Positions 3,012-25,804 of a stretch of DNA of 28,113 nucleotides are shown piece after piece (position 1 is the first letter of the stretch; every line of letters starts with the position of its first letter). Location: the NCBI GenBank assembly GCA_964492885.1, contig CAZBMI010000001.1, positions 1-28,113 of the forward strand, written 5' to 3'. Position numbers and translations under genes: made by a program. Below the pieces are notes generated by a model, which was not told the origin of the DNA, ran no database searches, and saw nothing but the letters and a program-made list of their open reading frames with translations. Source of the stretch: an uncultured Planctomycetia bacterium (lineage in GTDB: Bacteria > Omnitrophota > Gorgyraeia > JABMRG01).

Positions 3012-3088
3012 TGGTAGCGGCGAGTGGAATTGAACCACTGACAACACGGGTATGAGCCGTGTGCTCTGACCATCTGAGCTACGCCGCC
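3012..3088 (-). tRNA. tRNA with CAT anticodon, most likely elongator tRNA-Met
   Basis: 77 nt GGCGGCGTAGCTCAGATGGTCAGAGCACACGGCTCATACCCGTGTTGTCAGTGGTTCAATTCCACTCGCCGCTACCA. Cloverleaf with anticodon stem CACGG/CCGTG, loop CTCATAC, T-loop GTTCAAT and encoded CCA. The G1-U72 pair and GGCGGCG acceptor argue against an initiator; Ile2 is not fully excluded. Confidence 0.95.
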
Positions 3089-3111
3089 ACAATTTTACGC
3101 ATTCACACTTG

Positions 3112-3162
3112 CCCCGTAACAAATTTTACTTAAGTTCGTTGGCTTATAAATTTGACACGGGG
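3112..3162. repeat. CCCCG...CGGGG hairpin module, copy 1 (51 bp), in the tRNA leader
   Basis: Arms CCCCGTAACAAATTT and AAATTTGACACGGGG. Its 21-nt interior matches the reverse complement of the copy 3 interior at 15/21 positions. Confidence 0.8.
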
Positions 3163-3195
3163 CGCCGCCATAATTTCCACTAATTTTGTGAAGTG

Positions 3196-3242: not shown

Positions 3243-3404
3243 GCTGTATCACACTTCGGAGTAATTTCGCAGGAGCGCTCGCAATCCCCAGCGTGGATTG
3301 CTCGCTCTGCTTTTCTGCTCATTCGTATAGTTTATATAGTGGAAAAACCCTGCCATTCGCAGAAAAGAAAGTCCTGCTCTAATTACTCCAAAGTGTGAGA
3401 CAGC
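3243..3404. repeat. 162-bp multi-branched palindromic element (MITE/REP-like or structured RNA)
   Basis: 24-bp terminal inverted repeat with 2 mismatches (3243-3266 GCTGTATCACACTTCGGAGTAATT versus 3381-3404). Internal pairs are GCAATCC/GGATTGC and CTTTTCTGC/GCAGAAAAG. Confidence 0.7.
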
Positions 3405-3428
3405 ATTATAAGACTGACACAGGATTGG

Positions 3429-6400
3429 TTAAGAACTGGCAGGATTATTTTCGCATGTGCCGTTTCTTTCACAGCGTATCATACTTGAATGATGCGTGAG
3501 CTTTAATGCTATGTCATCCACAATGGAATAGACGCATGGTATTACTATAAGTGTAAGCATTGTCGCGAATATTATACCCCAGCATATTGAGAGCGCCATT
3601 GGAACCAGGAACGGGTCTTTCCCCCCTATTCCGTATGCAACCGTTGACAAACCTCCTGCTGTTGTAACGGTAGTCAGTATAACAGGCCTTAGCCTTATCT
3701 GCCCTGCCTTTATTATTGAATCGTATCTGCTCATACCCTTTCTGCGAAGGTTATTGATAAAACTCACCAATACTATCGAGTCATTGACAACAATACCGTT
3801 TAATCCTACTATTCCCAGTATTGAAAGAAAAGACATCGGAACCCCGTGAGCTATAAAAGCTATTACAACACCTATAATGCCGAATGGTATGGCAAGCATC
3901 ACTATAAAAGGCTGTATAAGCGACCTGAAGAATGAAGCCAATATAAGATAGATTATCAGAAACGCGTAGAAGAATGCCTTTAAAAGGCTCATAAGCGATT
4001 TTATAGACTCTTCCTGCTCTCCGCCGTATTTTACAGAATACCCGAAATATCTGTCTTTTATATGCTTGAACTTCTCCTGCAGCATCCTGTTTATCCTTAC
4101 TGACGTTATCTTGTCAGTATCAAGGTTTGACGAGGCAGTGACAACGCGCTTACCGTCTAAATGGTGTATTGTCGTTGTGCCAGGCACCTTCTCTATCGAG
4201 GCGACCTTCTTAAGGGGAATCAGGTTTCCGGAGGTGTTTCTCACTAATATGCTGTCAAAGACCTGCTCGTCGCTTGCAAGGTCTTTTGGAAACATAAGTG
4301 TAACATCCGTCTCTTCTTCTGCTTTTACAGGTTTTACCTTTGTCGCGATAGTCCCTTCAAAAACACCTCTTACTGTCTTTGCTATTTGAGCAATAGAAAG
4401 GCCTGCCACCCTTGCTTTATTGTTATCAACCTTTATGCGTATCTCTTCCTTGCCGGGCTTGTGATCCCATGTAACATCACTGGTTCCGTCAATAGTATTT
4501 AAATAGTCCATATATTCAAAAGCTATCTTATCCAGGGTACCGAAATCCTCCCCCCTTGCCTTTACTTCAACGGGTTTACCTACGGGCGGGCCTGCCTCGG
4601 GCTTGTCAAGTCTTAGGTCTGTAAAACCTTTGATATCTTTTATCTTACCCCTTAATTCATCGATTATCTCTTCAACGCTCCTTTTTCTGTCCTGCTCAGG
4701 CTTAAGATACACGGCAACCTGCACAAGGTGGCTTGCCTTTCCCGCGAAAGGGTCATGCCTGTCTTCCGCGATATTGCCAATAGATGTTACAAAGGCATCC
4801 ATCTCGTCTCTTGAGATCTGTGATACTATCTCTTCGACAGGCGCTATAAGCTCATTAGCCTTTTTTAAAGGCGTGCCTATCGGTGCCTCTGCCCTTACAA
4901 AGAAATAGTTTATGCCCGCACTTGGGAATAATATGAATTTAAGCGGCCCTTTTCCTGAGAAGGACAACACCATGGTGCTGATACACAAAACCGCTGCTGC
5001 AAATGTCCCTAAAAATACATACCACTTCTTCCTTACGGCTGTTTCAACTATTCTTGTATAAAAAGCTACCAGGTTTTTAAACCAGGGAAGATCTTTCTTT
5101 AGGCCGATTGGCTTTCCGTCTGAACCGAGTTTTACCTTTACAAAATCCGCTATGTGGCTTGGTAAGATAATAAGCGCCTCTCCCAGCGAGGCTGCCAAAG
5201 CTATTATAAGAACAGTCGGGATATTTCTGATAAACCTTCCTATTATCCCCGTCATGAAAAGAAGCGGTGAATACGCCGCTATTGTGGTAAACACGGCTGC
5301 TGATACTGCCCCCATTACCTCTTCTGTGCCTTTTATGGCAGCCTGCCTCGGGGCAAGGCCTTCTTCTATATAGCGGTATGAGTTCTCGGCAACAATAATA
5401 CCGTCGTCTACAAGCATACCAAGTACTATTATAAGCCCGAACATGCTCATTAAATTTATAGTAACACCCATAGAGCTCATAATCATAAATGTCGTAAAGA
5501 ATGCGATAGGTATTCCAAGAATGGTAACTGCCGCTATTCTGTACTGTAAAAACAGAAGCATTATCGCGATTACTATAAGTAAACTGACCCACCCGTTATT
5601 ACCGAGCACATTAAGCCTTCTTCGGGCAAAATAAGAGTAGTCATTAACATATGATATCTCGAGGCTCTCAGGAGAGTTTTTCAGAAAGTCATCGCATCTT
5701 CTCTTTACCTCGTCAACTATGCTCAAGGCGTCACCTGAGGCTCTTTTGGTGACTAAGAGGTTTATAGAGCGTTTTCCGAAGGTTTTGTATATAATCTCTT
5801 CTTTTTTGAATGAATCTTTTACAGTTGCTATATCCTTTATCTTAAGCCAGTTTCCGGCGTCATTAGACCTTACTATTATATCCTCAACCTCTTCTGTGGT
5901 AGTAAACTCTCCTGTAGTCCTTACGCTGTACTCTGTGGTATCTGTATTAAACTCTCCCGCAGGTATGCTTACATTGCGGCCTGCGAGAGCCTCTTCAACC
6001 TCATCAAAAGAGACGTAAAGCTCTTTCATTTTTTCGGGGTCAAGGTATATTTGTATCTCCCTGTCCCGGTAGCCTGACTTTGTAACCTTGGCAACCCCTG
6101 AAACATCCTCTAATATATCCTCGAGTACATCAGCATAGTAGCGCAGTTTTGCCTCATCCATGGTCCCTGAAAGCGACACCTCTATTATCGCGTACTGGCT
6201 GCTGTCAATCTCTGTTGTAATAGGGTCTTCATATATATCCCTGGGAAGGTCTTTTACCCTGTCTACAGCGTCTTTTATGTCATTTACGACTTTGCGTTTG
6301 TCCTTGGAATCAGGGTCTATCTCAACCATTATATAAGAGGCGCCGTGCGCTGATGAGGAGCGGAGCTCATCAATACCGTCAACCTCTTTAAGCTCTTTCT

Positions 6401-9680: not shown

Positions 9681-9723
9681 GGTAAGGAAAGTTTATATTG
9701 AAAGTATGTATAGGCTAAACGTC

Positions 9724-9810
9724 TTGTCATTGCGAGGAGCTTAAAGCGACGAAGCAATCCCAAAATGTTAGAGATTGCCGCGCCTTGCTACGCAAGGCTC
9801 GCAATGACAA
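9724..9810. repeat. REP-like palindrome, GTCATTGCGAG family (empty form)
   Basis: Perfect 13-bp ends TTGTCATTGCGAG/CTCGCAATGACAA, inner GCAATC/GATTGC pair, and a small hairpin GCCTT-GCTACGC-AAGGC. It lies between hppA and mnmA. Confidence 0.9.
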
Positions 9811-9823
9811 ACGATTATAGTAA

Positions 9824-11920: not shown

Positions 11921-11967
11921 ATTGTTTACTCCTTATCCTTTTAAAGTTTTTGGTTATATCTACCGTT

Positions 11968-12013
11968 ATTATAAAATTATTGCCAGATGCCGCAAGAAAA
12001 TACACCTGGCAAT
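11968..12013 (-). promoter_or_regulatory. Candidate hppA promoter with an overlapping inverted repeat
   Basis: TTGCGG-16 nt-TATAAT (11995-11968). ATTGCCAGATG (11979-11989) and CACCTGGCAAT (12003-12013) form a 10/11 inverted repeat around the -35 box. Confidence 0.4.
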
Positions 12014-12082
12014 ATTTTTACGATTATATGTTATTTGTTTCAAATACTCAAGGATTGTTTTTAAATTAATGAAGATTATTAA

Positions 12083-12168
12083 AGATTCTTCGCTTCGCCC
12101 CGTTATAAATTTTGCTGATATTAGCTTTTCATATAAATTTGGTACGGGGCTTCGCGCTCAGAATGACA
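12083..12168. repeat. Half REP (GTCATTCTGAG family) carrying hairpin module copy 2 (12098-12149)
   Basis: AGATTCTTCG...GCTCAGAATGACA right arm. The module is flanked by a CTTCG direct repeat at 12093-12097 and 12150-12154. Confidence 0.8.
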
Positions 12169-12176
12169 ATGGGTTA

Positions 12177-13679
12177 CTAATTAACAGTCCGGATATTTAC
12201 ATCTTCTACATGAAGGGTATCATCGGATACTATTGATATACGTCTTTTAAAGACGCGTTTTAATTTCTCGATAGCCGCTGAATCGTCATTTACAAGCCTT
12301 TGGGCTATCCTGGGGTGGACAACAACCTCCACCCTCAACCTTCGTGACCTTCCGGACTTAAGCACGCTCTTGATTTTCCTCAGCGCTGAAATAGCTATCG
12401 CGCTGTCAGATTTTACCATGCCCCTGCCATCGCAGTAAGGGCAGTTTTCGTATGAAACACTCTGCAGGCTTTTTCTCACGCGCTGGCGTGTCATCTCCAC
12501 TATATTGAGTTCTGAAAATGATATAATATTGGTTCTTGCCTTATCTTTTTCAAGGGCGTTCTGCAAGAGCGAATATATCTCCTTCTTGTGTGATGATATC
12601 TCCATATCTATAAAATCTATTATTATAATGCCGCCTATATCGCGTAAGCGCAGCTGGCGCGCTATTTCAACCGCAGCCTCTTTATTGACTTTAAATATCG
12701 TGTCCTCAAGGTTTTTCTTTCCCGTAAAACGCCCGCTGTTTACGTCGATAGCTATCATACCCTCTGTCTGTTCTATTGTAATAAAACCGCCGCATTTCAA
12801 ATATATCTTGCGCTCAAAGAGCTTGTCTATCTCCTTCTCAACGTTATATTTTTCAAAAAGAGAAACAGGCTCCTTGTGAAGCCTCAGCTTGTTCCTGTAT
12901 GAAGGCGTTATCTTGGAAACAAACCCCTTCAAACGCTTAAATTCATGTATTTCATCAACTACAACCCTTGTAGTGTCGTCGCTTAAAAAATCCCTTAAGA
13001 CCTTTAGCGCTATGTCAAACTCCTCAAAAAGAAGAACCGGTGATTTCTGTTTCTTTGCGGCAGCGCTTATCTTATTGTACGTATCAAGAAGATACTTTAT
13101 ATCCCGCGTAAATTCTTTCTTGCCGCAGCCCTGAGCAGCTGTCCTTGCCACAACCCCTGTATCTTTAGGAAGTCTTATGCTCTGCAAAAGAGCCTTTATT
13201 CTTTTCCTCTCATCATCATCCTTAATCCTGCGCGATACGCCTATCTTCTTTGAGGTAGGCATAAGCACAAGATACCTTCCGGGAAGGGATATGTGCGTGG
13301 TTAAGCGCGCGCCTTTTGTGCCAAGGGGCTCTTTTGTTATCTGGACAAGCACATCCTGGCCTTTTTTTACAATTTCGCTTATCTTTGTCTTATGCGTGCG
13401 GTGTTTATGCCCGTTTGCCGGAAAAAAGAACCCTGAATCCTCATCTTCTATTAAAGGCGCTGTTATATCATCAACATAAAGAAACCCGTTCTTCTCAAGC
13501 CCGCAGTCAACAAAGGCAGCTCCCATACCGTTTAATACAGAGCTTATCGCTCCTTTATATACATTACCGACAATTCTCTTTTTGGAAATTCTCTCTACAA
13601 AATACCACTCCAGTTTCTTTTCGCGCAGTATGGCAACTCTGCGCTCTCCTGCCTCTATGTTTATAAGTATCTCTTGCAT
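12177..13679 (-). CDS. rng: Ribonuclease E/G family endoribonuclease
   Basis: GNVYKG S1 domain, QITKEPLGTKGARLT, IAIDVNSG, RLRDIGGIIIIDFIDM, EMTRQR and Zn-link CPYCDGRG. At 500 aa it has no long C-terminal scaffold. SD AAGGAG upstream. Confidence 0.95.
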   Translation of the reverse strand: MQEILINIEAGERRVAILREKKLEWYFVERISKKRIVGNVYKGAISSVLNGMGAAFVDCGLEKNGFLYVDDITAPLIEDEDSGFFFPANGHKHRTHKTKISEIVKKGQDVLVQITKEPLGTKGARLTTHISLPGRYLVLMPTSKKIGVSRRIKDDDERKRIKALLQSIRLPKDTGVVARTAAQGCGKKEFTRDIKYLLDTYNKISAAAKKQKSPVLLFEEFDIALKVLRDFLSDDTTRVVVDEIHEFKRLKGFVSKITPSYRNKLRLHKEPVSLFEKYNVEKEIDKLFERKIYLKCGGFITIEQTEGMIAIDVNSGRFTGKKNLEDTIFKVNKEAAVEIARQLRLRDIGGIIIIDFIDMEISSHKKEIYSLLQNALEKDKARTNIISFSELNIVEMTRQRVRKSLQSVSYENCPYCDGRGMVKSDSAIAISALRKIKSVLKSGRSRRLRVEVVVHPRIAQRLVNDDSAAIEKLKRVFKRRISIVSDDTLHVEDVNIRTVN

Positions 13680-13715
13680 GTTGTATTATCACTCCTTTGC
13701 TGCTGATATTAATGT

Positions 13716-13850
13716 TTGTCATTGCGAACGAAGTGAAGCAATCTCAAAACATTAAAGATTGCCACGCCTTGCTACGCCCCGTTATAAATTTATATGCCAA
13801 CGCATATGAGCAAAATTTGTAACGGGGCTACGCAAGGCTCGCAATGACAA
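13716..13850. repeat. REP-like palindrome (GTCATTGCGA family) carrying hairpin module copy 3 (13777-13827)
   Basis: Same layout as 9724-9810, but the GCCTT-GCTACGC-AAGGC loop is interrupted by a 51-bp module flanked by CTACG at 13772-13776 and 13828-13832. Confidence 0.9.
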
Positions 13851-13856
13851 TACCCC

Positions 13857-14156
13857 TTATTCTACATGTGTTATTCGTACTCCCTCCGGCAATTGGCTGT
13901 TAAGCCGCTCTTTAACAGCAAGAGGGTTTACGTTCTCATCAAGGACAAACTCCATCTCTTCTTTATCGGATTCGATGCCCAGTTTTAATGCCTTATTTAT
14001 TCTTACGACAGGCCTGGGCCTGAACCCCTTGGTCAGGTAAAACTTAAGGCCTGTCCTTCGCAATGCCCTGTTAAAAAGCCTTAAAAGATCCAGATGCGAG
14101 ATATAGCGCATCCATCCGTTTTTACTGAATATAACATGATATAATATTTTCATCAT
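13857..14156 (-). CDS. DUF2344 / radical SAM-linked family protein, short form
   Basis: FSKNGWMRYISHLDLLRLFNRALRR..L.FY..KGFRPRP...ALKLGIES..E matches this family from memory. It sits upstream of rng, a common context. Confidence 0.8.
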   Translation of the reverse strand: MMKILYHVIFSKNGWMRYISHLDLLRLFNRALRRTGLKFYLTKGFRPRPVVRINKALKLGIESDKEEMEFVLDENVNPLAVKERLNSQLPEGVRITHVE

Positions 14157-14193
14157 AATAAATGGGGCACAGGCACCTATCTTTGGCTATTGA

Positions 14194-15696
14194 TTAATGA
14201 TATCTTATGTCTTCAGCCTTTTCTACTTTGAAGAAATCTTTGACAGTCTTCTCCATAAGCGCTTTGTCATCATTGTCTTCATCTACAAGCTGGACTGTAA
14301 CAAATATCAGAAGGTCCTTTGTGTTTATTTCATCATCCTTATATTTAAAGAGTTCCCCAAAGAGCGGTATATCTCCTAAAAAAGGCACTTTCTTGTCAAT
14401 CCTGACAGTAGTATTCTCTCTTAATCCTCCTATTACTATAGTCTGGCCGTCTTTTATCATGACCTGCGTCTCAGCTGTCCTTGTTGTAAAACGAGGCGCC
14501 TGTATGGCGTTGTCACCTGAGCCGAAATTGTCCCACTGGTCAAATTTGCTGACTTCGGGTTTTAAGTTAACTACTATATCTTTCGCGTCATTTACATGAG
14601 GAGTAACCGTAAGCGTTATGCCTATATCCTTCTCGGTATAACCTGTTATCTCCATCTGGCCTGTCTGGTCATTTCTTTCATATGTCGGTATATTAAAGAC
14701 ATCGCCTACAACAACCTTTGCCTCCTGGTTATTCAGTGTTGTTATAGTAGGATTTGACAATATATTCGTATCAGTAGTCTGGTCCAAAAGCTTTAGCGCG
14801 GCTTCCAGGCCTGTGAAATCCAGCGTGCCGAATGTAAAAGACGTTGCCTCAACATACGGAAAGACAGGGTCTACAACACTCGGAAAATCGTCTGTCGAGT
14901 CTCCGAGAGGCAGATAACCATTAATGGATTTATTCTTTCCTTTATTGGAAAAAGGCACCTCAGACCTGTCAAAGGGAAGTGTAGTAGGCCTTGAAGAGCC
15001 CGAGGCGCTTACTTCTACATTCCAATCAATGCCAAGCTCATCCTCATCCTTTATCCTTGCCTCTATAATCCGGGTCTCAATGGATACCTGCTGAGTCCTC
15101 TTGTCCAGCCTCTCTATAACGGTCTTTACTTTATGAAGGTTAGTCGGTATATCCGTAACTATAAGAGTGTTGGTCTTTTCATCGTACTTTACACTGCCTC
15201 TTTCGGTTAATGTAGCCTCTATGGCAGCTGCCACATCTTTGGCGTTTGAATAGTTTAGAACAAAGACCTCATTCTGCAAATCCTCTTCTGCTACACTGTC
15301 CAATGTAATAACCCTTATAATGTTTCCTATCCTCTCGCTTGCTAAGCCCTGGTTTTTCAGGATAACCTCAAGGGCCGTATTCCATGGGACATCCACGAGC
15401 CTTATGCTGACCTGGCCTTCGACATCGCTTGAGGCTACTATATTAACTCCGCTTTTATATGAGAGCGTATGCAGGACTGTCCTGATATCAGCATCCTTAA
15501 AAATCAATGTAACATTTCCCGGGGTAGAAGAATCCTCTGCATCGGCAATTATATCCCGGCCGGTATGTTCAGGCAGGGGTTGTAAAACAGGTATCTCCCC
15601 GGCAGGAGAATCTTCCGCATAGGAATAATCCCGGTAACTGAAACCGAAAACAGCAGCCACGCATAAACAACAAACTAATAATATTTTAAACCTCAT
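14194..15696 (-). CDS. pilQ: Type IV pilus secretin
   Basis: Signal peptide, STN/N domains (TLIFKDADIRTVL...WNTALEVIL), QVSIETRIIE, ILSNPTITTLNNQEA, and KKVPFLGDIPLFGELFK. It ends the pilMNOP run. Confidence 0.92.
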   Translation of the reverse strand: MRFKILLVCCLCVAAVFGFSYRDYSYAEDSPAGEIPVLQPLPEHTGRDIIADAEDSSTPGNVTLIFKDADIRTVLHTLSYKSGVNIVASSDVEGQVSIRLVDVPWNTALEVILKNQGLASERIGNIIRVITLDSVAEEDLQNEVFVLNYSNAKDVAAAIEATLTERGSVKYDEKTNTLIVTDIPTNLHKVKTVIERLDKRTQQVSIETRIIEARIKDEDELGIDWNVEVSASGSSRPTTLPFDRSEVPFSNKGKNKSINGYLPLGDSTDDFPSVVDPVFPYVEATSFTFGTLDFTGLEAALKLLDQTTDTNILSNPTITTLNNQEAKVVVGDVFNIPTYERNDQTGQMEITGYTEKDIGITLTVTPHVNDAKDIVVNLKPEVSKFDQWDNFGSGDNAIQAPRFTTRTAETQVMIKDGQTIVIGGLRENTTVRIDKKVPFLGDIPLFGELFKYKDDEINTKDLLIFVTVQLVDEDNDDKALMEKTVKDFFKVEKAEDIRYH

Positions 15697-15700
15697 TTAT

Positions 15701-16237
15701 CTACTCCTTTAACTTAAAAGTGTGGTCTTCTCCATTAAAAGACAATATCACTTTATCGGCATAAATCTTCTTTATCTGTATCTTGCCTATAGAAGAGCCT
15801 TCTTTTAACACCAGGTCATTCATAATCACTACAGATTCACCTGCGGGGTCATAAAGAATGCCCTCAAGCAACACATCATCAAGGGATTCCAAAGTTCCGT
15901 ATGTGATTGTAAGCTTACCGTCTTCGGTAACCAGAGGGATAAAAGGATCCCTGCGGCCCCGGCTCTCGTATTTAAAAGAGGCGGGCTCTTCCTGGGCATA
16001 CATTAGGGTACAAGAGGCAAGAACATAAGTGATAAGGCACAAGCCTATTGTCATTGCGAGGCGCTGCTTGTCATTCTGAGCGTTAGCCCCGTACCAAATT
16101 TTTATATTTGGTTCGGGGTTAGCGAAAAATCTAAACGGGTAGATCCTTCGTCGCCTGACTACTGCAGGCTCCTCAGGATGACATCGGCTTCGCTTGCGCT
16201 CGCAATGACTATATTGTGGATAATTATAAATAATCAT
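15701..16237 (-). CDS. pilP: PilP-like pilus assembly protein; N-terminus contains an in-frame palindromic repeat (alternative start at 16054)
   Basis: YESRGRRDPFIPL and LEGILYD...VIMND...EG..IG.IQIKKI, positioned between pilO and pilQ. The ATG at 16237 overlaps the pilO stop (ATGA). Confidence 0.7.
   Translation of the reverse strand: MIIYNYPQYSHCERKRSRCHPEEPAVVRRRRIYPFRFFANPEPNIKIWYGANAQNDKQRLAMTIGLCLITYVLASCTLMYAQEEPASFKYESRGRRDPFIPLVTEDGKLTITYGTLESLDDVLLEGILYDPAGESVVIMNDLVLKEGSSIGKIQIKKIYADKVILSFNGEDHTFKLKE
16046..16213. repeat. Three-level nested palindrome: outer GTCATTGCGAG REP, inner GTCATTCTGAG REP (16069-16183), and hairpin module copy 4 (16087-16118)
   Basis: Outer 15-bp inverted ends with 1 mismatch and inner TGTCATTCTGAG/CTCAGGATGACA ends. 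The module is flanked by TTAG at 16083-16086 and 16119-16122. Confidence 0.85.
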
Positions 16238-19587: not shown

Positions 19588-20286
19588 CTAATTCCTTAAT
19601 GTCGCCGCGCTGTTTAATGTAAGCGATACATTGCGCTGTACAGCGCCTGATACAGCCCCTACAGGCTTGGTAAGCGTAAAAGCCATGGAAACTGTGCTTC
19701 CTGTAATAGTATAATTAACCGTTGATATTGAATTGGCCATGACCCTTTGGGCACCGCTTGTCCTGTTAAAAGACATAAGCATCGAGCCGTCCTGCTTAAA
19801 AAGGCTTATGTTTGACGCTGTCAAGTTAACTGTTAACGGAAAATCCGCAGCCATCAAAGACGGGTCTGTGCAGGTATATTTGCGGATTTGGTTTATACCT
19901 TCTGTCGTCTGAAACGGGTAATATGCGCACGCGCCCTGCCAGTTTGTATTTCCGTTTATATCAAAGCCGTTGGTTACCGGAAATGCGATAAGGTCATAGC
20001 TGTCACCTGTGGCAGGGTCCGCTATTTGCGAAATATAGGTAATCATTGCGGAATCCGCCTGGCGTAAATCATCTGCAAGCTCATCAGCCGCGAATGACGC
20101 GCTGTTGCTTAAATCGGTTATGGCACTTAGCGTATAATAAGAATTAATAGAACTTATAAGCAGGGTAAATATAGCGGCGCTTATAAGACTTAAAAGCCCT
20201 ACAACAATCATGACCTCTATTAATGTAAAACCGCTCTTTTCTCTGCGTAAATGTAACGACCTGGATATATCATACAATCTTCTCAT
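19588..20286 (-). CDS. PilW-like minor pilin
   Basis: EKSG|FTLIEVMIV class III signal and L.DDLRQAD helix motif; positioned between the PilV-like and PilX-like genes. Confidence 0.75.
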   Translation of the reverse strand: MRRLYDISRSLHLRREKSGFTLIEVMIVVGLLSLISAAIFTLLISSINSYYTLSAITDLSNSASFAADELADDLRQADSAMITYISQIADPATGDSYDLIAFPVTNGFDINGNTNWQGACAYYPFQTTEGINQIRKYTCTDPSLMAADFPLTVNLTASNISLFKQDGSMLMSFNRTSGAQRVMANSISTVNYTITGSTVSMAFTLTKPVGAVSGAVQRNVSLTLNSAATLRN

Positions 20287-20657
20287 CTCTGCTCCACAAG
20301 CATGTCAACAGATACTGACTTCTGCCTGTTGGATTCTTCCTGCCATGTTATATTTACGGTTACTGGTATTGGAATCTGTGTAGTATCCGCGGCTATGCTG
20401 ACCTGTTCGGTATTATTTATATTACCAAGCGCGTAAGTCCTGGATGCTATCGTGCCGGTAACATCCACTTCACGCCTTAACTGTTCACACACAGCTCTTA
20501 TATCATTTGAGGCGATATTCGTATCTTTGGCAGTCTGCATGATAGACATGCACCTGTTTAAGGTATATAAGGAAGAAGCGATAAGAGTCGCTGATATGCC
20601 TATCGCGATAACAACCTCCAAAAGCGTAAAACCTCTTAAACTGGCATTGAATTTCAT
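20283..20657 (-). CDS. PilV-like minor pilin
   Basis: LRG|FTLLEVVIAI, a short 124-aa body, and the C-terminal VTVNITWQE pattern. Confidence 0.75.
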   Translation of the reverse strand: MKFNASLRGFTLLEVVIAIGISATLIASSLYTLNRCMSIMQTAKDTNIASNDIRAVCEQLRREVDVTGTIASRTYALGNINNTEQVSIAADTTQIPIPVTVNITWQEESNRQKSVSVDMLVEQR

Positions 20658-21115
20658 CAGTTTATCGCTGTGTCAGCCGGGCCTGCCTGTCCGCCTTCCC
20701 TGGCAGTTATCCTGCCTGTTTCGTCAGTATAAAAAGACCTGTTGCCTGTACGCGTACGGACCTGCGGGTCCGCGTTTAGAACAAATGACACAGGGGTGAC
20801 TCTTTGGTATGTATATACATAACCTGATTTAGTGCCTGAGGCTAAACTGAAATCTATGTAAGCAGGGCCTGCGGGGCCTGCCGTTCCTAATGCTGCTAAG
20901 TTGTCAGGATACTGATGGGGGACACTTCCCGCGTAATAGCTTTGGCAGGCAGATACTATGGTTTTGCATGAGGCTATCGCGACAGTCTCGTTAGCGCTAA
21001 TCCTGTTACGCAGCATCATGGATATGGACAATCCGGCTAAAAGCGCTATGATAGCCACAACAACCATTATTTCCACTAATGTAAAAGATTTTTTATGCCT
21101 AAAGATGCTATACAT
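20657..21115 (-). CDS. Type IV pilin paralogue 3 (first gene of the minor pilin/pilMNOPQ run)
   Basis: HKKS|FTLVEIMVVVAII. It shares ANE..AI.S..TI, SGTKSGY and TG.RSFYTDETG with the two adjacent pilins. Confidence 0.88.
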   Translation of the reverse strand: MYSIFRHKKSFTLVEIMVVVAIIALLAGLSISMMLRNRISANETVAIASCKTIVSACQSYYAGSVPHQYPDNLAALGTAGPAGPAYIDFSLASGTKSGYVYTYQRVTPVSFVLNADPQVRTRTGNRSFYTDETGRITAREGGQAGPADTAIN

Positions 21116-21153
21116 TAATCCTATGCCTTATACATATAATAATATATAATATA

Positions 21154-21182
21154 AGTTTAATTTATAAACAGATAAAAGTCAA
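21154..21182 (-). promoter_or_regulatory. Candidate sigma70 promoter for the minor pilin-pilMNOPQ operon
   Basis: TTGACT-17 nt-TAAACT in an AT-rich gap, 38 nt upstream of the ATG at 21115. Confidence 0.6.
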
Positions 21183-21194
21183 TAATAATATATC

Positions 21195-21204
21195 GTCATT
21201 GCGA
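21195..21204. repeat. Isolated REP arm remnant GTCATTGCGA
   Basis: Exact 10-nt match to the REP arm with no partner arm nearby; it may be chance. Confidence 0.35.
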
Positions 21205-21247
21205 ATAACAAAAGAATAGGTAATATAATAATATTCTTTTGATGAGA

Positions 21248-21676
21248 TTATGTTATGGGCAGATTATTAGTAAGGTCCATAACCACGCCTGTTTCGTCAA
21301 CACTAAAAACTCTCGTTCCTGTAGTACCGGGTCTCACAGGAGCAGCTGTACAGGTAAAGGTGTCCGCGCTCAGGTTTGATATGACAAAGGTATATCCCTG
21401 TTTTGTGCCTGAAGCCAGATTGGAGTCTATAAAAGGCGGGTTTGATACAGGCATGGACATCTGTGCCAGGGTTCCGTAGGTATTGGGAGTCTGCGATGTC
21501 CTGAATGACTCCTCTGCCGTGCTTATCGTTCTTAAGGAGGCTATGGCAGCTGCTTCATTGGCATTGTGTTTTGCCCTGAGCAGATTGGGTATTGCTACAG
21601 CTGCAAGCAATGCTATAATAGCAACTGTAATCATAACCTCAATAAGCGTAAAGCCCCTTTTTTCGCTCTTGATCAT
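21248..21676 (-). CDS. Type IV pilin paralogue 2
   Basis: EKRG|FTLIEVMITVAIIALLAAVAIPNL; closely similar to 21784-22215. SD AGGGAG upstream. Confidence 0.92.
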   Translation of the reverse strand: MIKSEKRGFTLIEVMITVAIIALLAAVAIPNLLRAKHNANEAAAIASLRTISTAEESFRTSQTPNTYGTLAQMSMPVSNPPFIDSNLASGTKQGYTFVISNLSADTFTCTAAPVRPGTTGTRVFSVDETGVVMDLTNNLPIT

Positions 21677-21719
21677 ATAGCGCTTTACTCCCTATTTTTA
21701 TTTAATAAACCGTAATATT

Positions 21720-21755
21720 AATGAAAAGGACCCTTAAACCAGGGCCCTTTTCATT
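21720..21755 (-). terminator. Intrinsic terminator after the probable major pilin
   Basis: Minus-strand hairpin AATGAAAAGGGCCCT-ggttta-AGGGTCCTTTTCATT with 15 pairs including one G-U and a U-rich 3' arm. Confidence 0.8.
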
Positions 21756-21783
21756 TTTTAGCTTTAAACAGCTTGTCGAAACG

Positions 21784-22215
21784 TTACTCTATAGGCCTGT
21801 TGTTTGTTACATCCCATACCACGCCTGTCTGGTCAACGGTAAATGTCCTTGTTCCTGTCTGGCCCGCGACCTGCGGACTAGCTGTTACCGTATAAGTGTT
21901 CGGGCTAAGGTTACTCATTACAAAATTGTAACCCTGCTTTGCTCCTCCTGCCAATATCTGGTCGATATATGCAGGTCCGCCGTTCGGCGGAGCAAGAAGA
22001 TTAGCAAGGGTACCGTATGTAACAGGATTCTGGTTTGCGCGGTATGACTCCTCTGCAGAGCTTATTGTCCTTAAACTGCCTATTGCAGCGGACTCATTGG
22101 CATTGTGCCTTGCCCTTAAGAGGTTAGGTATGGCTATAGCGGCCAATAATGCTATGATAGCGACAACAATCATCATTTCAACAAGAGTAAAGCCCTTATT
22201 TCCTTTTATCTTCAT
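21784..22215 (-). CDS. pilA: Type IV pilin, probable major pilin
   Basis: GNKG|FTLVEMMIVVAIIALLAAIAIPNL. Having its own promoter and terminator suggests a separately and highly expressed subunit. Confidence 0.88.
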   Translation of the reverse strand: MKIKGNKGFTLVEMMIVVAIIALLAAIAIPNLLRARHNANESAAIGSLRTISSAEESYRANQNPVTYGTLANLLAPPNGGPAYIDQILAGGAKQGYNFVMSNLSPNTYTVTASPQVAGQTGTRTFTVDQTGVVWDVTNNRPIE

Positions 22216-22256
22216 ATGTTTTCGCCCCCTTTCGCCCCTGGATGGGTCGTTTTTTT

Positions 22257-23663: not shown

Positions 23664-23705
23664 AAGCTGTAAGCTGTAAGCTGTAAGTTTTAAGCTTTAA
23701 GCTTT
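23664..23705 (+). repeat. Heptamer tandem array, left (6 units)
   Basis: AAGCTGT x3, AAGTTTT, AAGCTTT x2. It contains the last codons and stop of the four-helix-bundle gene. Confidence 0.92.
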
Positions 23706-24046
23706 TTTTGAAATCCTGACAACATACATCCAATTTCATCAGTTAATATTGATAACTGTTGGTAATGTTTCTTGTCTATATATTTTAAATCATAAGCCAA
23801 AAGTAAATGATATTTTGTCTCCTCTAAAGAGCTGTCAGCCACATTGAGAAAATGCGCAAAATCTTTATCGCTTCTTCTTTTATAACCTTCAACGATATTG
23901 GTAGCTATAGAAGAAGCGGACCTTCTTAATTGTGTTATTAAACCATATTTTTCGGTAGCAGGAAATATTTTAGTAAATTTGTATATTTCCAAAACCAATT
24001 CATGGGCTTTTTGCCAAGCTTTTATATTCTTGAATGTATATGACAT
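23690..24046 (-). CDS. Four-helix-bundle protein (23S rRNA IVS protein / Avd-like fold family)
   Basis: AWQKAHELVLEIYKFT..FP..EKYGLITQLRRSASSIATNIVEG...F.HFL..A..SL.ET. Hand count gives 108 G+C in 360 nt (30%) over 23701-24060. Confidence 0.92.
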   Translation of the reverse strand: MSYTFKNIKAWQKAHELVLEIYKFTKIFPATEKYGLITQLRRSASSIATNIVEGYKRRSDKDFAHFLNVADSSLEETKYHLLLAYDLKYIDKKHYQQLSILTDEIGCMLSGFQKKLKA

Positions 24047-24055
24047 TTGATTTTT

Positions 24056-24090
24056 GCTTATAGCTTACGGCTTACAGCTTAAAGCTTATT
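24056..24090 (-). repeat. Heptamer tandem array, right (5 units), inverted relative to the left array
   Basis: Plus strand GCTTATA GCTTACG GCTTACA GCTTAAA GCTTATT. It contains the pilB stop codon (24086-24088). Confidence 0.92.
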
Positions 24091-25804
24091 CCTCGGTCGT
24101 TATCCTCAATACCTCTTCAATGGTAGTTAATCCCGAAAGCGCTTTTTGAAAGGCATTGTCCCTTAAAGTCTTCATACCGTGGGAAACGGCATACTCTTTT
24201 ATATCATCCGAAGACTTGCCTTTTACCACCATCTCCCTTATTGTATCATCTATTAGCAATATTTCAAGTGTTCCCATTCTTCCGCGGTAACCTGTATTAT
24301 TGCATTTGCTGCATCCTGTACCGTGGTAAAATACAGCGTTCTTTGGCGGGTTTATATTAAGACGCTTTAAAACCGACGGTGTAACTTCACAAGGCTCTTT
24401 ACAGCCTTCGCATATCTTTCTGCAGAGCCTCTGCGCGGCAACAGCTACAAGGCTTGATGTTACAAGAAAAGGTTCGACCCCCATATCGATAAGGCGTGTT
24501 ATCGCTCCGCAGGCATCATTGGTATGAAGAGTGCTTAATAATAACTGGCCTGTAAGAGATGCTTTGATGGCTATATCAGCTGTCTCAAAATCTCTTATCT
24601 CTCCGATAAGCACTATATCGGGCGTCTGGCGCAGTATAGAACGTAACCCCGCTGAAAAGGTAAACTTTATATCGGGGTTTACCTGTATCTGGGTTATTCC
24701 TTCGACCTGGTATTCAACAGGGTCTTCTATGGTGACTATATTCTTCTCCGGGGTATTAAGCTGTGTTATTATAGAATAGAGCGTTGTCGACTTTCCGCTT
24801 CCTGTAGGGCCTGTTACAAGTATCATGCCATACGGTTTGTTTATTGCCTCTTCAAATAGCTTGAGGGGTTCAGGCAGGTAGCCTAACTTATCCAGGCCTA
24901 TGCTGAGGCTTGTCTTATCAAGCGCCCTCATAACTACTTTACTTCCATGGCTTGTAGGAAGTATGGATACCCTGAAGTCAACTTCCTTATCACGCATCCG
25001 TATCCGAAAACGCCCGTCCTGCGGTACGCGCCATTCGGTAATATCCATTCCCGACATTATCTTTATGCGGGTAAGGACGGCGTTTTGGTCCTTTTTTGGC
25101 AAAGAAAAGGCCTTGCGCAGTGTCCCGTCTACCCTGTATCTTACACGAAGGCTTTTCTCCTGAGGCTCGACATGAATATCAGACGCGCGGCTCTCAAGCG
25201 CTTCTGTTATCATCAGGTTCACTACTTTTACTATAGGCGCTACTTTGCTCTGTTTTGTAATCTCCGCGACATCAACTATATCTTCGTTTTCAGCAGCCGT
25301 AAGCTCCATTGAATCGCTCTCTCCGGCCTCTTTGACTTCTTTGAGTATCTGGGCAAGCTGTGTAGACTCCGCCCCGTAATAGTTGTTTATGGCGCCTGAT
25401 ATCTCCTTATCCGTGCTTATTACAGGGTCTATCTTGTAATGAGTCAGTATCTTAATATCGTCTATGGCAAATATATTTAATGGGTCCGCCATACAGAGGG
25501 TCAGGTTATCACCCATCCTCGATACGGGAATCACCTTATACTGCTTTGCTATTCTTTCGGGTATGAGTTTTACGACTTGAGGGTCCACTGAAAAACGGGA
25601 CAGATTGAGTATGGGCAGGTTTAAGCTCGAGCTTAAAAGAAGCGCTAAGTCTTTCTCCTTTATAAAACCTTCTTTAAGCAGTATATTACCGAGGTTGCCT
25701 CCTTCGGCCTTCTGTATCTCTATGGCCTTGTTAAGCTGTTCTTTTGTTATGAGCTTGCTGTTCTCCAAGGCATCGAGCAGTTTCTTTTTAAGTGAAGTTA
25801 CCAT
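24086..25804 (-). CDS. pilB: GspE/PilB-family pilus assembly ATPase, copy 2
   Basis: ASDIHVEP, VPQDGR, Walker A GPTGSGKST, TIEDPVE, LRQTPDIVLIGEIRD, STLHTND, and CEGC...CSKC. Confidence 0.93.
   Translation of the reverse strand: MVTSLKKKLLDALENSKLITKEQLNKAIEIQKAEGGNLGNILLKEGFIKEKDLALLLSSSLNLPILNLSRFSVDPQVVKLIPERIAKQYKVIPVSRMGDNLTLCMADPLNIFAIDDIKILTHYKIDPVISTDKEISGAINNYYGAESTQLAQILKEVKEAGESDSMELTAAENEDIVDVAEITKQSKVAPIVKVVNLMITEALESRASDIHVEPQEKSLRVRYRVDGTLRKAFSLPKKDQNAVLTRIKIMSGMDITEWRVPQDGRFRIRMRDKEVDFRVSILPTSHGSKVVMRALDKTSLSIGLDKLGYLPEPLKLFEEAINKPYGMILVTGPTGSGKSTTLYSIITQLNTPEKNIVTIEDPVEYQVEGITQIQVNPDIKFTFSAGLRSILRQTPDIVLIGEIRDFETADIAIKASLTGQLLLSTLHTNDACGAITRLIDMGVEPFLVTSSLVAVAAQRLCRKICEGCKEPCEVTPSVLKRLNINPPKNAVFYHGTGCSKCNNTGYRGRMGTLEILLIDDTIREMVVKGKSSDDIKEYAVSHGMKTLRDNAFQKALSGLTTIEEVLRITTEE

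Follow-up and report, generated by a model that had tools for sequence, protein, structure and literature searches.

A short palindromic mobile element of Omnitrophota and Patescibacteria with 4–5 bp target duplications and a tRNA-Pro hotspot

A short hairpin bounded by CCCCG and CGGGG (hereafter the module) was analyzed in a 28,113-nt stretch of DNA from an uncultured bacterium of the Omnitrophota lineage (assembly GCA_964492885.1, contig CAZBMI010000001.1, positions 1 to 28,113); the whole stretch is referred to as the window. The module is a real, mobile element. It is built of two 15-bp terminal inverted repeats (consensus R, then CCCCGTTASAAATTT) around a variable centre of 0–30 nt, and was found inserted in either orientation in repetitive extragenic palindromic (REP)-type elements, in heptamer arrays and in copies of itself, where it piles up in tandem. 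Target DNA of 4–5 bp is duplicated on insertion. The element is spread over Omnitrophota and Patescibacteria, and the 5' end of tRNA-Pro genes is a hotspot for it; both observations go beyond an earlier interpretation of the window, made from its letters alone (the sequence-only reading), from which this analysis started.

Copies, filled sites and target duplications

Four modules were located in the window (Table 1), all of them intergenic and within minus-strand operons. Their arms have the form CCCCGTNNNAAATTT. This motif (≤1 mismatch) occurred 8 times in the 28-kb window against 0.24 expected from shuffles, with 0 of 100 shuffles reaching 8, and 7 of the 8 occurrences were arms of the four modules. 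The positions of the four copies and the short form of copy 4, as given in the sequence-only reading, were confirmed by inspection and by this count. A chance origin of the module was ruled out by the shuffle test together with the database counts given below. A fifth CCCCG..CGGGG pair (24647–24677) lies inside a gene, has no AAATTT boxes and is probably due to chance. Each window module was predicted to fold into a hairpin as single-stranded DNA (dG −7 to −15 kcal/mol, z −2.8 to −6.0); the stems are A+T-rich apart from the 5 terminal pairs, and the arms are mismatched, as in decaying copies.

The direct repeats CTTCG, CTACG and TTAG were present around copies 2, 3 and 4 as originally proposed, and become GCTTCGC, GCTACGC and GTTAGC (7, 7 and 6 bp) if one C/G is assigned to the host. 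The proposed inversion of copy 3 relative to copy 1 was likewise upheld, with 15 of 21 positions matching after its interior was reverse-complemented (hand count). Copy 1 is an exception to the 4–5 bp rule. Two 15-nt stretches, each of tRNA-Met leader plus tRNA bases 1–7, flank the module plus 15 nt, and the upstream duplicate, GAAATTATGGCGGCG, is identical to the native copy at 3082–3096 at 13 of 15 positions. This duplication is far longer than 4–5 bp and is unexplained by the mechanism proposed below; a comparable duplicated 5' end of tRNA-Thr was seen in locus L013 (L-numbers denote retrieved loci, together 1.2 Mb; X2 and X4 denote metagenome runs).

Filled and empty sites were compared within and outside the window. 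Alignment of the REP at 9715–9820 with the REP at 13707–13860 left a single 56-nt gap, at GCCTT-GCTACGC-AAGGC. The gap equals the 51-nt module plus 5 duplicated bases, so the two REPs are a filled/empty pair of paralogs, and the contrast drawn earlier between an uninterrupted loop and a loop split by the module was sustained. In a contig from run X2, another copy of this REP read to 9793, continued with CCCGTACCAAATATAAAATTTGGTTCGGG and resumed at 9787; that loop is here occupied by a distinct variant of 31 nt, again with GCTACGC/CTACG duplicated. Full-length REPs corresponding to the truncated host of copy 2 were seen elsewhere in the lake community (loose contig ends). Relatives L096–L100 (~80% RNase G protein identity) carried no REP or module at the orthologous intergenic sites, and a relative in run X4 (~92% DNA identity) had 33 nt in place of window 12035–12164. 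Gene order was retained in the ~80% relatives: four of them keep PilM-N-O-P-Q, DUF2344 and RNase G, and in L100 the order continues with pyrophosphatase, MnmA, MarR, TolC and the RND pump.

The usual hosts of the module in the lake community were REP-type elements, including those of window copies 2–4; outside the lake community most targets were non-REP. The host REP family (TTGTCATTGCGA...TCGCAATGACA) was also found on Nostoc punctiforme pNPUN03 (L154, 71284–71370) and on other cyanobacterial plasmids, and is therefore common to several phyla. When REP plus module was compared with plasmids by blastn, cyanobacteria matched in the REP part only and not in the module. The left half of the REP-type host (GTCATTGCGAG..GAAGCAATC, 9721–9764) reached ~1000x word depth in the lake metagenomes, compared with ~4x for unique DNA.

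Databases were searched with a strict pattern (both arms exact, the NNN positions free, centre 0–30 nt), which favours young, perfect copies. It was found at 33 loci in species-representative genomes (by label, 19 in Omnitrophota metagenome-assembled genomes, 9 in Patescibacteria, 2 in Planctomycetes, 2 unclassified and 1 in an 'Aenigmatarchaeota') and at 61 loci in metagenomes; ~0.1 would be expected by chance in 596 Gb (arithmetic with equal base frequencies). An archaeal occurrence was rejected: the 'Aenigmatarchaeota' contig L006 (JBAZQV010000029.1) is 80–86% identical to Parcubacteria loci L002 and L095 over coding DNA and is probably mis-binned. A phage carrier was also rejected, with 0 matches to the strict palindrome in IMG/VR and single arms there at about chance level. 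The only viral-labelled DNA found to carry the module was L124 (IMGVR_UViG_3300038429_000794), in which modules of 80 nt and 29 nt and a half-site lie between small genes (3245–3990). That the element is common to uncultivated Omnitrophota and Patescibacteria suggests DNA exchange between them.

Module length was 31–59 bp in strict-pattern copies and 29 bp in one L124 copy. Longer relatives of 80–165 nt with the same CCCCGTTAS termini were rarer, and those of 98–165 nt, which are non-coding, carry 4–5 bp duplications. The size of roughly 50 bp first assumed for the element was thus too narrow, the commonest form in the source lake being 31 nt. For this form the word depth was 15–90x that of unique DNA, and 8 or more different flanks, mostly REP-type, were seen. 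In the lake runs, no fewer than 4 further flanks adjoined the interior of copy 3, which also turned up, hardly altered, in L013. Recurrence of the same small variants at unrelated flanks indicates that the small form itself multiplies. Among copies with identical arms the centres differed widely in length and sequence. Eight variants of the free arm positions were recorded (TAG, TAC, ACC, TCC, TGG, TGC, TAA and ACT), and these positions were fully complementary between arms in 58 of 72 unique copies. Heptamer tandem arrays surround the modules of Omnitrophota bin.644.

An exact direct repeat was present just outside CCCCG...CGGGG in 29 of 72 unique strict-pattern copies (4 bp in 25, 5 bp in 4). 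When left flanks were paired with the right flanks of other copies as a control, ~3% gave direct repeats. About 20 independent repeat sequences were recovered; TTAA, TTTA and TAAA were among the commonest, and others included TGGG, CGAA, TGAA, TACA, TATA, TTAG, TTGA, CGTG, CGAAG, TGATA and TTTTA, to which the window adds CTTCG, CTACG and TTAG. Every duplication began with a pyrimidine and ended with a purine. Of the 150 ends in the flank logo, 133 had a pyrimidine at position −4 and 141 had a purine at position −1. The target rule is Y-N-N-R or Y-N-N-N-R on both flanks symmetrically, with duplication of these 4–5 bp, the mark left when a staggered double-strand cut is filled in.

Independent insertion of a tiny non-coding element, as proposed in the sequence-only reading, is supported by these duplications, by the filled and empty sites and by the variety of flanks. 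Observations that would have counted against it had been named in advance (no consistent duplication, one fixed position and orientation within one REP subtype, no polymorphism), and the opposite was found on each count: duplications were consistent, hosts and positions varied and sites were polymorphic. The accompanying proposal that hairpin loops are the general target did not hold. In 76 unique copies, the host sequences on either side of the duplication were hardly more complementary than in the mismatched-flank control, and general targeting of hairpin apices was rejected. The apex of a host palindrome is occupied only by copy 3, by the L013 module (hairpin CCTCC-GAA-GGAGG, CGAAG duplication) and by a few others; copies 2 and 4, compared by eye with the canonical arm sequence, seem to be placed within REP arms, bracketed by CG..CG (2 bp) only.

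The module at tRNA-Pro and other tRNA genes

In the retrieved loci the module overlapped tRNA bases 1–5 at 16 of 19 tRNA-Pro genes, with all three anticodons represented. At these genes the module ends in CGGGG, which serves as tRNA bases 1–5, and the flanking CGTG is bases 6–9. Because CGGGG plus the duplicated CGTG make up bases 1–9, insertion after base 9 leaves the tRNA-Pro gene intact. Copies at tRNA-Pro amounted to 14 of 75 unique strict-pattern copies. An identical 44-nt module was found at tRNA-Pro(CGG) in L039 and at tRNA-Pro(TGG) in L056.

Upstream of the tRNA-Pro module stands a second, decayed copy that is also bounded by CGTG. In L059 the order is CGTG, module (4462–4521), CGTG, module (4526–4562), CGTG and tRNA, and the same layout was seen in L014, L063, L086 and L035. 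The older copies in these stacks are decayed and only the newest is perfect. On the simplest reading, the stacks were produced by repeated insertion beside a look-alike of the element's own end (CGGGG followed by YNNR), the newest copy lying nearest the gene. A module-free Omnitrophota tRNA-Pro leader reading AAATTTGTAA would suggest that the arms may have arisen from a tRNA-Pro leader.

Other tRNA genes were also adjoined. A module lies next to tRNA-Val in L048. On a Patescibacteria-like contig (L040, 286–394), a whole tRNA-Ala(CGC) gene stands between two module arms; these arms could be a processing stem, or the tRNA could be cargo.

Gene context of the window

All genes of the window are on the minus strand and comprise TilS, a PilZ protein, tRNA-Met, an RND pump, TolC, MarR, MnmA, pyrophosphatase, RNase G, DUF2344, PilQ/P/O/N/M, pilins, PilC and PilB. 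The best named relatives of the window RNase G are Candidatus Omnitrophota (62–69% identity). The exact RNase G protein was recorded in only one 1.6-kb Logan contig, which ends inside repeats, and DNA of the window was present in lake-water metagenomes. Positions of the modules, their hosts and the features around copy 1 are given in Table 1.

Table 1. Modules, host elements and tRNA-Met features in the window (nt positions; strand where assigned).
Feature	Position	Strand	Details
Module copy 1	3112–3162		51 nt; within tRNA-Met leader; no 4–5 bp flanking repeat
Module copy 2	12098–12149		52 nt; CTTCG at 12093–12097 and 12150–12154
Module copy 3	13777–13827		51 nt; CTACG at 13772–13776 and 13828–13832
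Module copy 4	16087–16118		32 nt, short form; TTAG at 16083–16086 and 16119–16122
tRNA-Met(CAT)	3012–3088	−	Downstream of module copy 1
Duplicate of tRNA-Met leader and tRNA bases 1–7	3163–3177	−	GAAATTATGGCGGCG; upstream
Sigma70-like promoter	3225–3196	−	Perfect TTGACA-18-TATAAT; upstream of copy 1 and tRNA-Met
Empty REP-type host	9724–9810		Intact target CTACG at 9788–9792 in hairpin GCCTTGC-TAC-GCAAGGC
Truncated REP hosting copy 2, left part	12084–12097		Ends in left CTTCG
Right CTTCG, then REP terminus	12150–12169		CGCTCAGAATGACAA; host of copy 2
Filled REP-type host of copy 3	13716–13850		Same family as REP 9724–9810
REP-in-REP nest hosting copy 4	16048–16209		Outer GTCATTGCGAG...CTCGCAATGAC, inner GTCATTCTGAG...CTCAGGATGAC; between pilO and pilP

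Several further features were recorded. The open reading frame at 15701–16237 runs through the entire REP-in-REP nest including module copy 4, such that ~60 REP-encoded residues stand ahead of the stretch alignable with the PilP proteins of relatives. An in-frame ATG, just before the signal-peptide-like stretch of this frame, comes from the REP end CAATGACA. Repeats of this kind break short-read assemblies (Logan contigs end inside them) and give false open reading frames and N-terminal extensions. Between pilB and pilC, a 118-aa gene for a '23S rRNA intervening sequence protein' (PF05635; 23690–24046, minus strand) is bracketed by inverted heptamer arrays (AAGCTGT)n. In relative L099 the matching 70-nt gap holds heptamer arrays (GGATTAA)n only and the PF05635 gene is absent; the whole region (23664–24087) looks like an inserted cassette. 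At 20201–22217, 3–4 small paralogous genes lie in tandem; they encode N-terminal methylation motifs (pilin-like), have conserved 5' ends and are marked by repeat families D1–D3 and D6. Upstream of the pyrophosphatase gene, a hairpin (ttgccaggtg...catctggcaa, 11940–12000) is kept in the ~80% relative L100 (11560–11620) and may be regulatory.

Mode of movement and relation to known systems

The module was interpreted, with somewhat better than even confidence, as a non-autonomous palindromic micro-transposon that is moved in trans by an enzyme making 4–5 bp staggered cuts, in the manner of a MITE (miniature inverted-repeat transposable element) or a small dispersed repeat (SDR). The enzyme would be a transposase or integrase, most likely of DDE type. 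A 31-bp element lacks the length to form a loop, and its ends would probably meet at the base of a hairpin or cruciform extruded from the duplex. Insertion beside sequences resembling the element's own end (CGGGG, then YNNR) would also be favoured by the enzyme, a preference that would account for the tRNA-Pro hotspot as well as for the tandem pile-ups.

A number of points weigh against this interpretation. The cruciform-synapsis step is purely inferred, and to our knowledge no transposase moves an element as short as 31 bp. No transposase gene was found in the window. Longer elements with the same termini and a transposase, for which the sequence-only reading had suggested a search, were not recovered: no coding autonomous element with matching arms 90–5000 nt apart and a duplication was present in the 1.2 Mb of retrieved DNA, where the only such pairs besides the one in L052 belong to non-coding relatives of 98–165 nt. 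The L052 pair, the only long one, was rejected as an autonomous element; between its arms lie housekeeping genes (for inositol monophosphatase, a phosphoesterase, a permease and capsule synthesis). About half of the copies, window copy 1 included, have no exact duplication. The share of copies at tRNA-Pro may be inflated, since the strict pattern favours young, perfect copies. Presence or absence of the module was seen only between paralogous REP copies and in no case as a module-only difference at an orthologous site, a comparison that is out of reach of Logan contigs, which are too short and break in repeats.

A more specific and more tentative form of the proposal, held to be rather unlikely, is that the module represents a new class of self-synapsing micro-transposon common to Omnitrophota and Patescibacteria, consisting of a bare pair of 15-bp ends that come together when it folds into a hairpin or cruciform, served by an enzyme so far connected with no insertion sequence (IS) family and homing to tRNA-Pro. 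If so, CGGGG would mimic tRNA-Pro bases 1–5, the element would home into tRNA-Pro genes and rebuild them, and the pre-tRNA leader would fill with hairpins that may affect tRNA-Pro maturation.

Movement as a single-stranded hairpin, of DNA or RNA, was considered unlikely. The module would be carried by an HUH tyrosine transposase (RAYT or IS200/IS605-like) or by reverse transcription, the flanking repeats arising incidentally when structured single-stranded targets are entered. Such a route would suit an essentially perfect hairpin whose arms stay complementary across eight variants, and its nesting in REP-type elements and heptamer arrays, as in SDRs. Many copies carry C-N-T-G on one side only, reminiscent of the tetranucleotide fixed at the left flank in IS200/IS605. 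A RAYT-like Y1 transposase gene is present in a close relative (L097, 1140–1902, next to the pilus operon; NF047646 at 60 bits, below the cut-off of 80), and no DDE partner was found in the retrieved loci. However, HUH single-strand transposition as known from IS200/IS605 and REP/RAYT makes no target duplication, whereas duplications of 4–5 bp are the rule in clean copies of the module, and YNNR stands symmetrically on both flanks, not on one. The RAYT-like gene of L097 was rejected as the mobiliser: it is flanked by 26-nt inverted repeats (TTTAAATAGGGACAGACACCTATTTT) unrelated to the module, and its locus contains no modules.

It is improbable that the copies are remnants of a full-length IS that inserted with duplication and then lost its interior, the small element itself never having moved. 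This history would fit the great variation in centre length and sequence among copies with identical arms and the same termini on relatives of 80–165 nt, and would not require a 31-bp element to synapse. Against it, variants of 51, 44 and 31 nt are each found again between unrelated flanks, no full-length element was present in the 1.2 Mb of retrieved DNA, and the tandem pile-ups at tRNA-Pro are hard to make by repeated full insertion and deletion.

An immobile functional hairpin of certain REP subtypes (a terminator, RNase processing stem or tRNA leader), with the flanking repeats contributed by palindromic hosts, was given very little weight and is largely refuted as the origin of the module: several copies do adjoin tRNA 5' ends, the L040 arms bracket tRNA-Ala as a processing stem would, some Patescibacteria copies lie directly upstream of a TTGACA −35 box or have T-rich DNA after them, and every window copy lies between genes of minus-strand operons, but duplications occur in unrelated, non-palindromic contexts, the module is missing from one REP and from syntenic relatives, the arms in the window are mismatched in a decay-like manner, the older tRNA-Pro copies are decayed, and the four window copies had no terminator-like score and no Rfam match.

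Individual identities were rejected separately. As intrinsic terminators, 0 of the 4 window copies were among the 27 terminator-like sites, and their stems are A+T-rich apart from the 5 terminal pairs. Among Rfam RNA families, only tRNA reached the gathering score in the window, and nothing was found on the modules at E≤1. An integron attC site was rejected by inspection, because the box order is reversed (GTTAGAA...TTCTAAC, compared with RYYYAAC/GTTRRRY) and the Y/R positions misfit. A Xer/dif-like site or CRISPR repeat was rejected, also by inspection, on the variable 0–30 nt centre and the lack of regular spacing.

The micro-transposon interpretation was then set against described systems. 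IS1380 elements have CC termini and 4–5 bp duplications, and piggyBac has CCC...GGG ends and a 4-bp TTAA duplication (ISfinder family table). The CC termini and 4–5 bp duplications of the module recall an IS1380/piggyBac-like enzyme, which we presume to be a lead only. The likeness, in CCCCG termini and duplication length, is a resemblance and nothing further, and the target of the module, YNNR, is looser. No IS1380-family transposase bounded by module termini was seen in the retrieved loci, and the genomes were not scanned for one. IS1380 transposases are distantly related to eukaryotic piggyBac (PMC10140906).

Bacterial MITEs (Correia/NEMIS, RUP, Nezha, MITEAba12) share with the module terminal inverted repeats, short duplications of fixed length, the lack of coding capacity, many copies at unrelated sites, filled and empty sites, and nesting. 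Their length is ~70–300 bp (PMC3733652). The module thus has the terminal inverted repeats, the duplication of characteristic length, and the multi-site copies with empty sites of a MITE, and at 31–59 bp in strict copies it falls below the MITE size range, as the sequence-only reading had held. It differs further in consisting of almost nothing except two 15-bp ends, in having no known parent IS, and in its gene-rebuilding hotspot at the 5' end of tRNA-Pro.

REP and REPIN elements mobilised by RAYT are alike in size range, palindromic form, extragenic location and nesting in other palindromes; REPs are 21–65 bp (PMC3184786), and repeats including REPs nest inside palindromes (PMC3733652). Unlike these, the module has no GTAG or CGTC tag (its ends are CCCCG, with GTAG at 1 of 150 ends), has target duplications, and had no linked RAYT among the loci, the repeats of the L097 RAYT-like gene being unrelated. 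Insertion sequences that target REPs include IS1397, ISKpn1, IS621, ISPpu9/10 and ISRm22 (PMC1525189). They too are transposable DNA choosing REP palindromes, as do window copies 2–4 and most lake copies, but are full-length members of the IS3, IS110, IS4, IS256 and IS5 families, whereas the module is 31–59 bp and non-coding. A full-text literature search found no paper on this element or on its tRNA-Pro arrangement, which is not proof of absence.

A parallel in size class and habit is seen with SDRs, in that both are embedded in heptamer arrays, in minitransposon-like elements and in their own copies, and the REP-type host family of the module also occurs in N. punctiforme, on pNPUN03. SDR1–8 of Nostoc punctiforme, the subject of Elhai et al., are reportedly tiny mobile hairpin repeats found in heptamer arrays, in minitransposons and in one another, and movement as a single-stranded hairpin or as RNA is said to have been proposed for them. 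As far as we know, the mechanism of these cyanobacterial repeats is still unsettled. The module is set apart, by comparison of descriptions only, by its length of 31–59 nt, its occurrence in Omnitrophota and Patescibacteria and its 4–5 bp duplications. SDRs are 21–27 nt and have been reported as confined to Nostocaceae (PMC5861425); the original study (Elhai et al. 2008, Genome Res 18:1484) is cited in PMC5861425 and PMC3116915.

If the micro-transposon interpretation is confirmed, the lower size limit for DNA that transposes with target duplication would be ~30 bp, and how the ends of so short an element meet would become a mechanistic question. The cyanobacterial SDRs would gain a counterpart that is defined in sequence and bears a clear mark of its insertion. 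The module would also represent an unusual form of tRNA-gene targeting, in which insertion at the 5' end regenerates the gene and a visible stack of past insertions is left behind.

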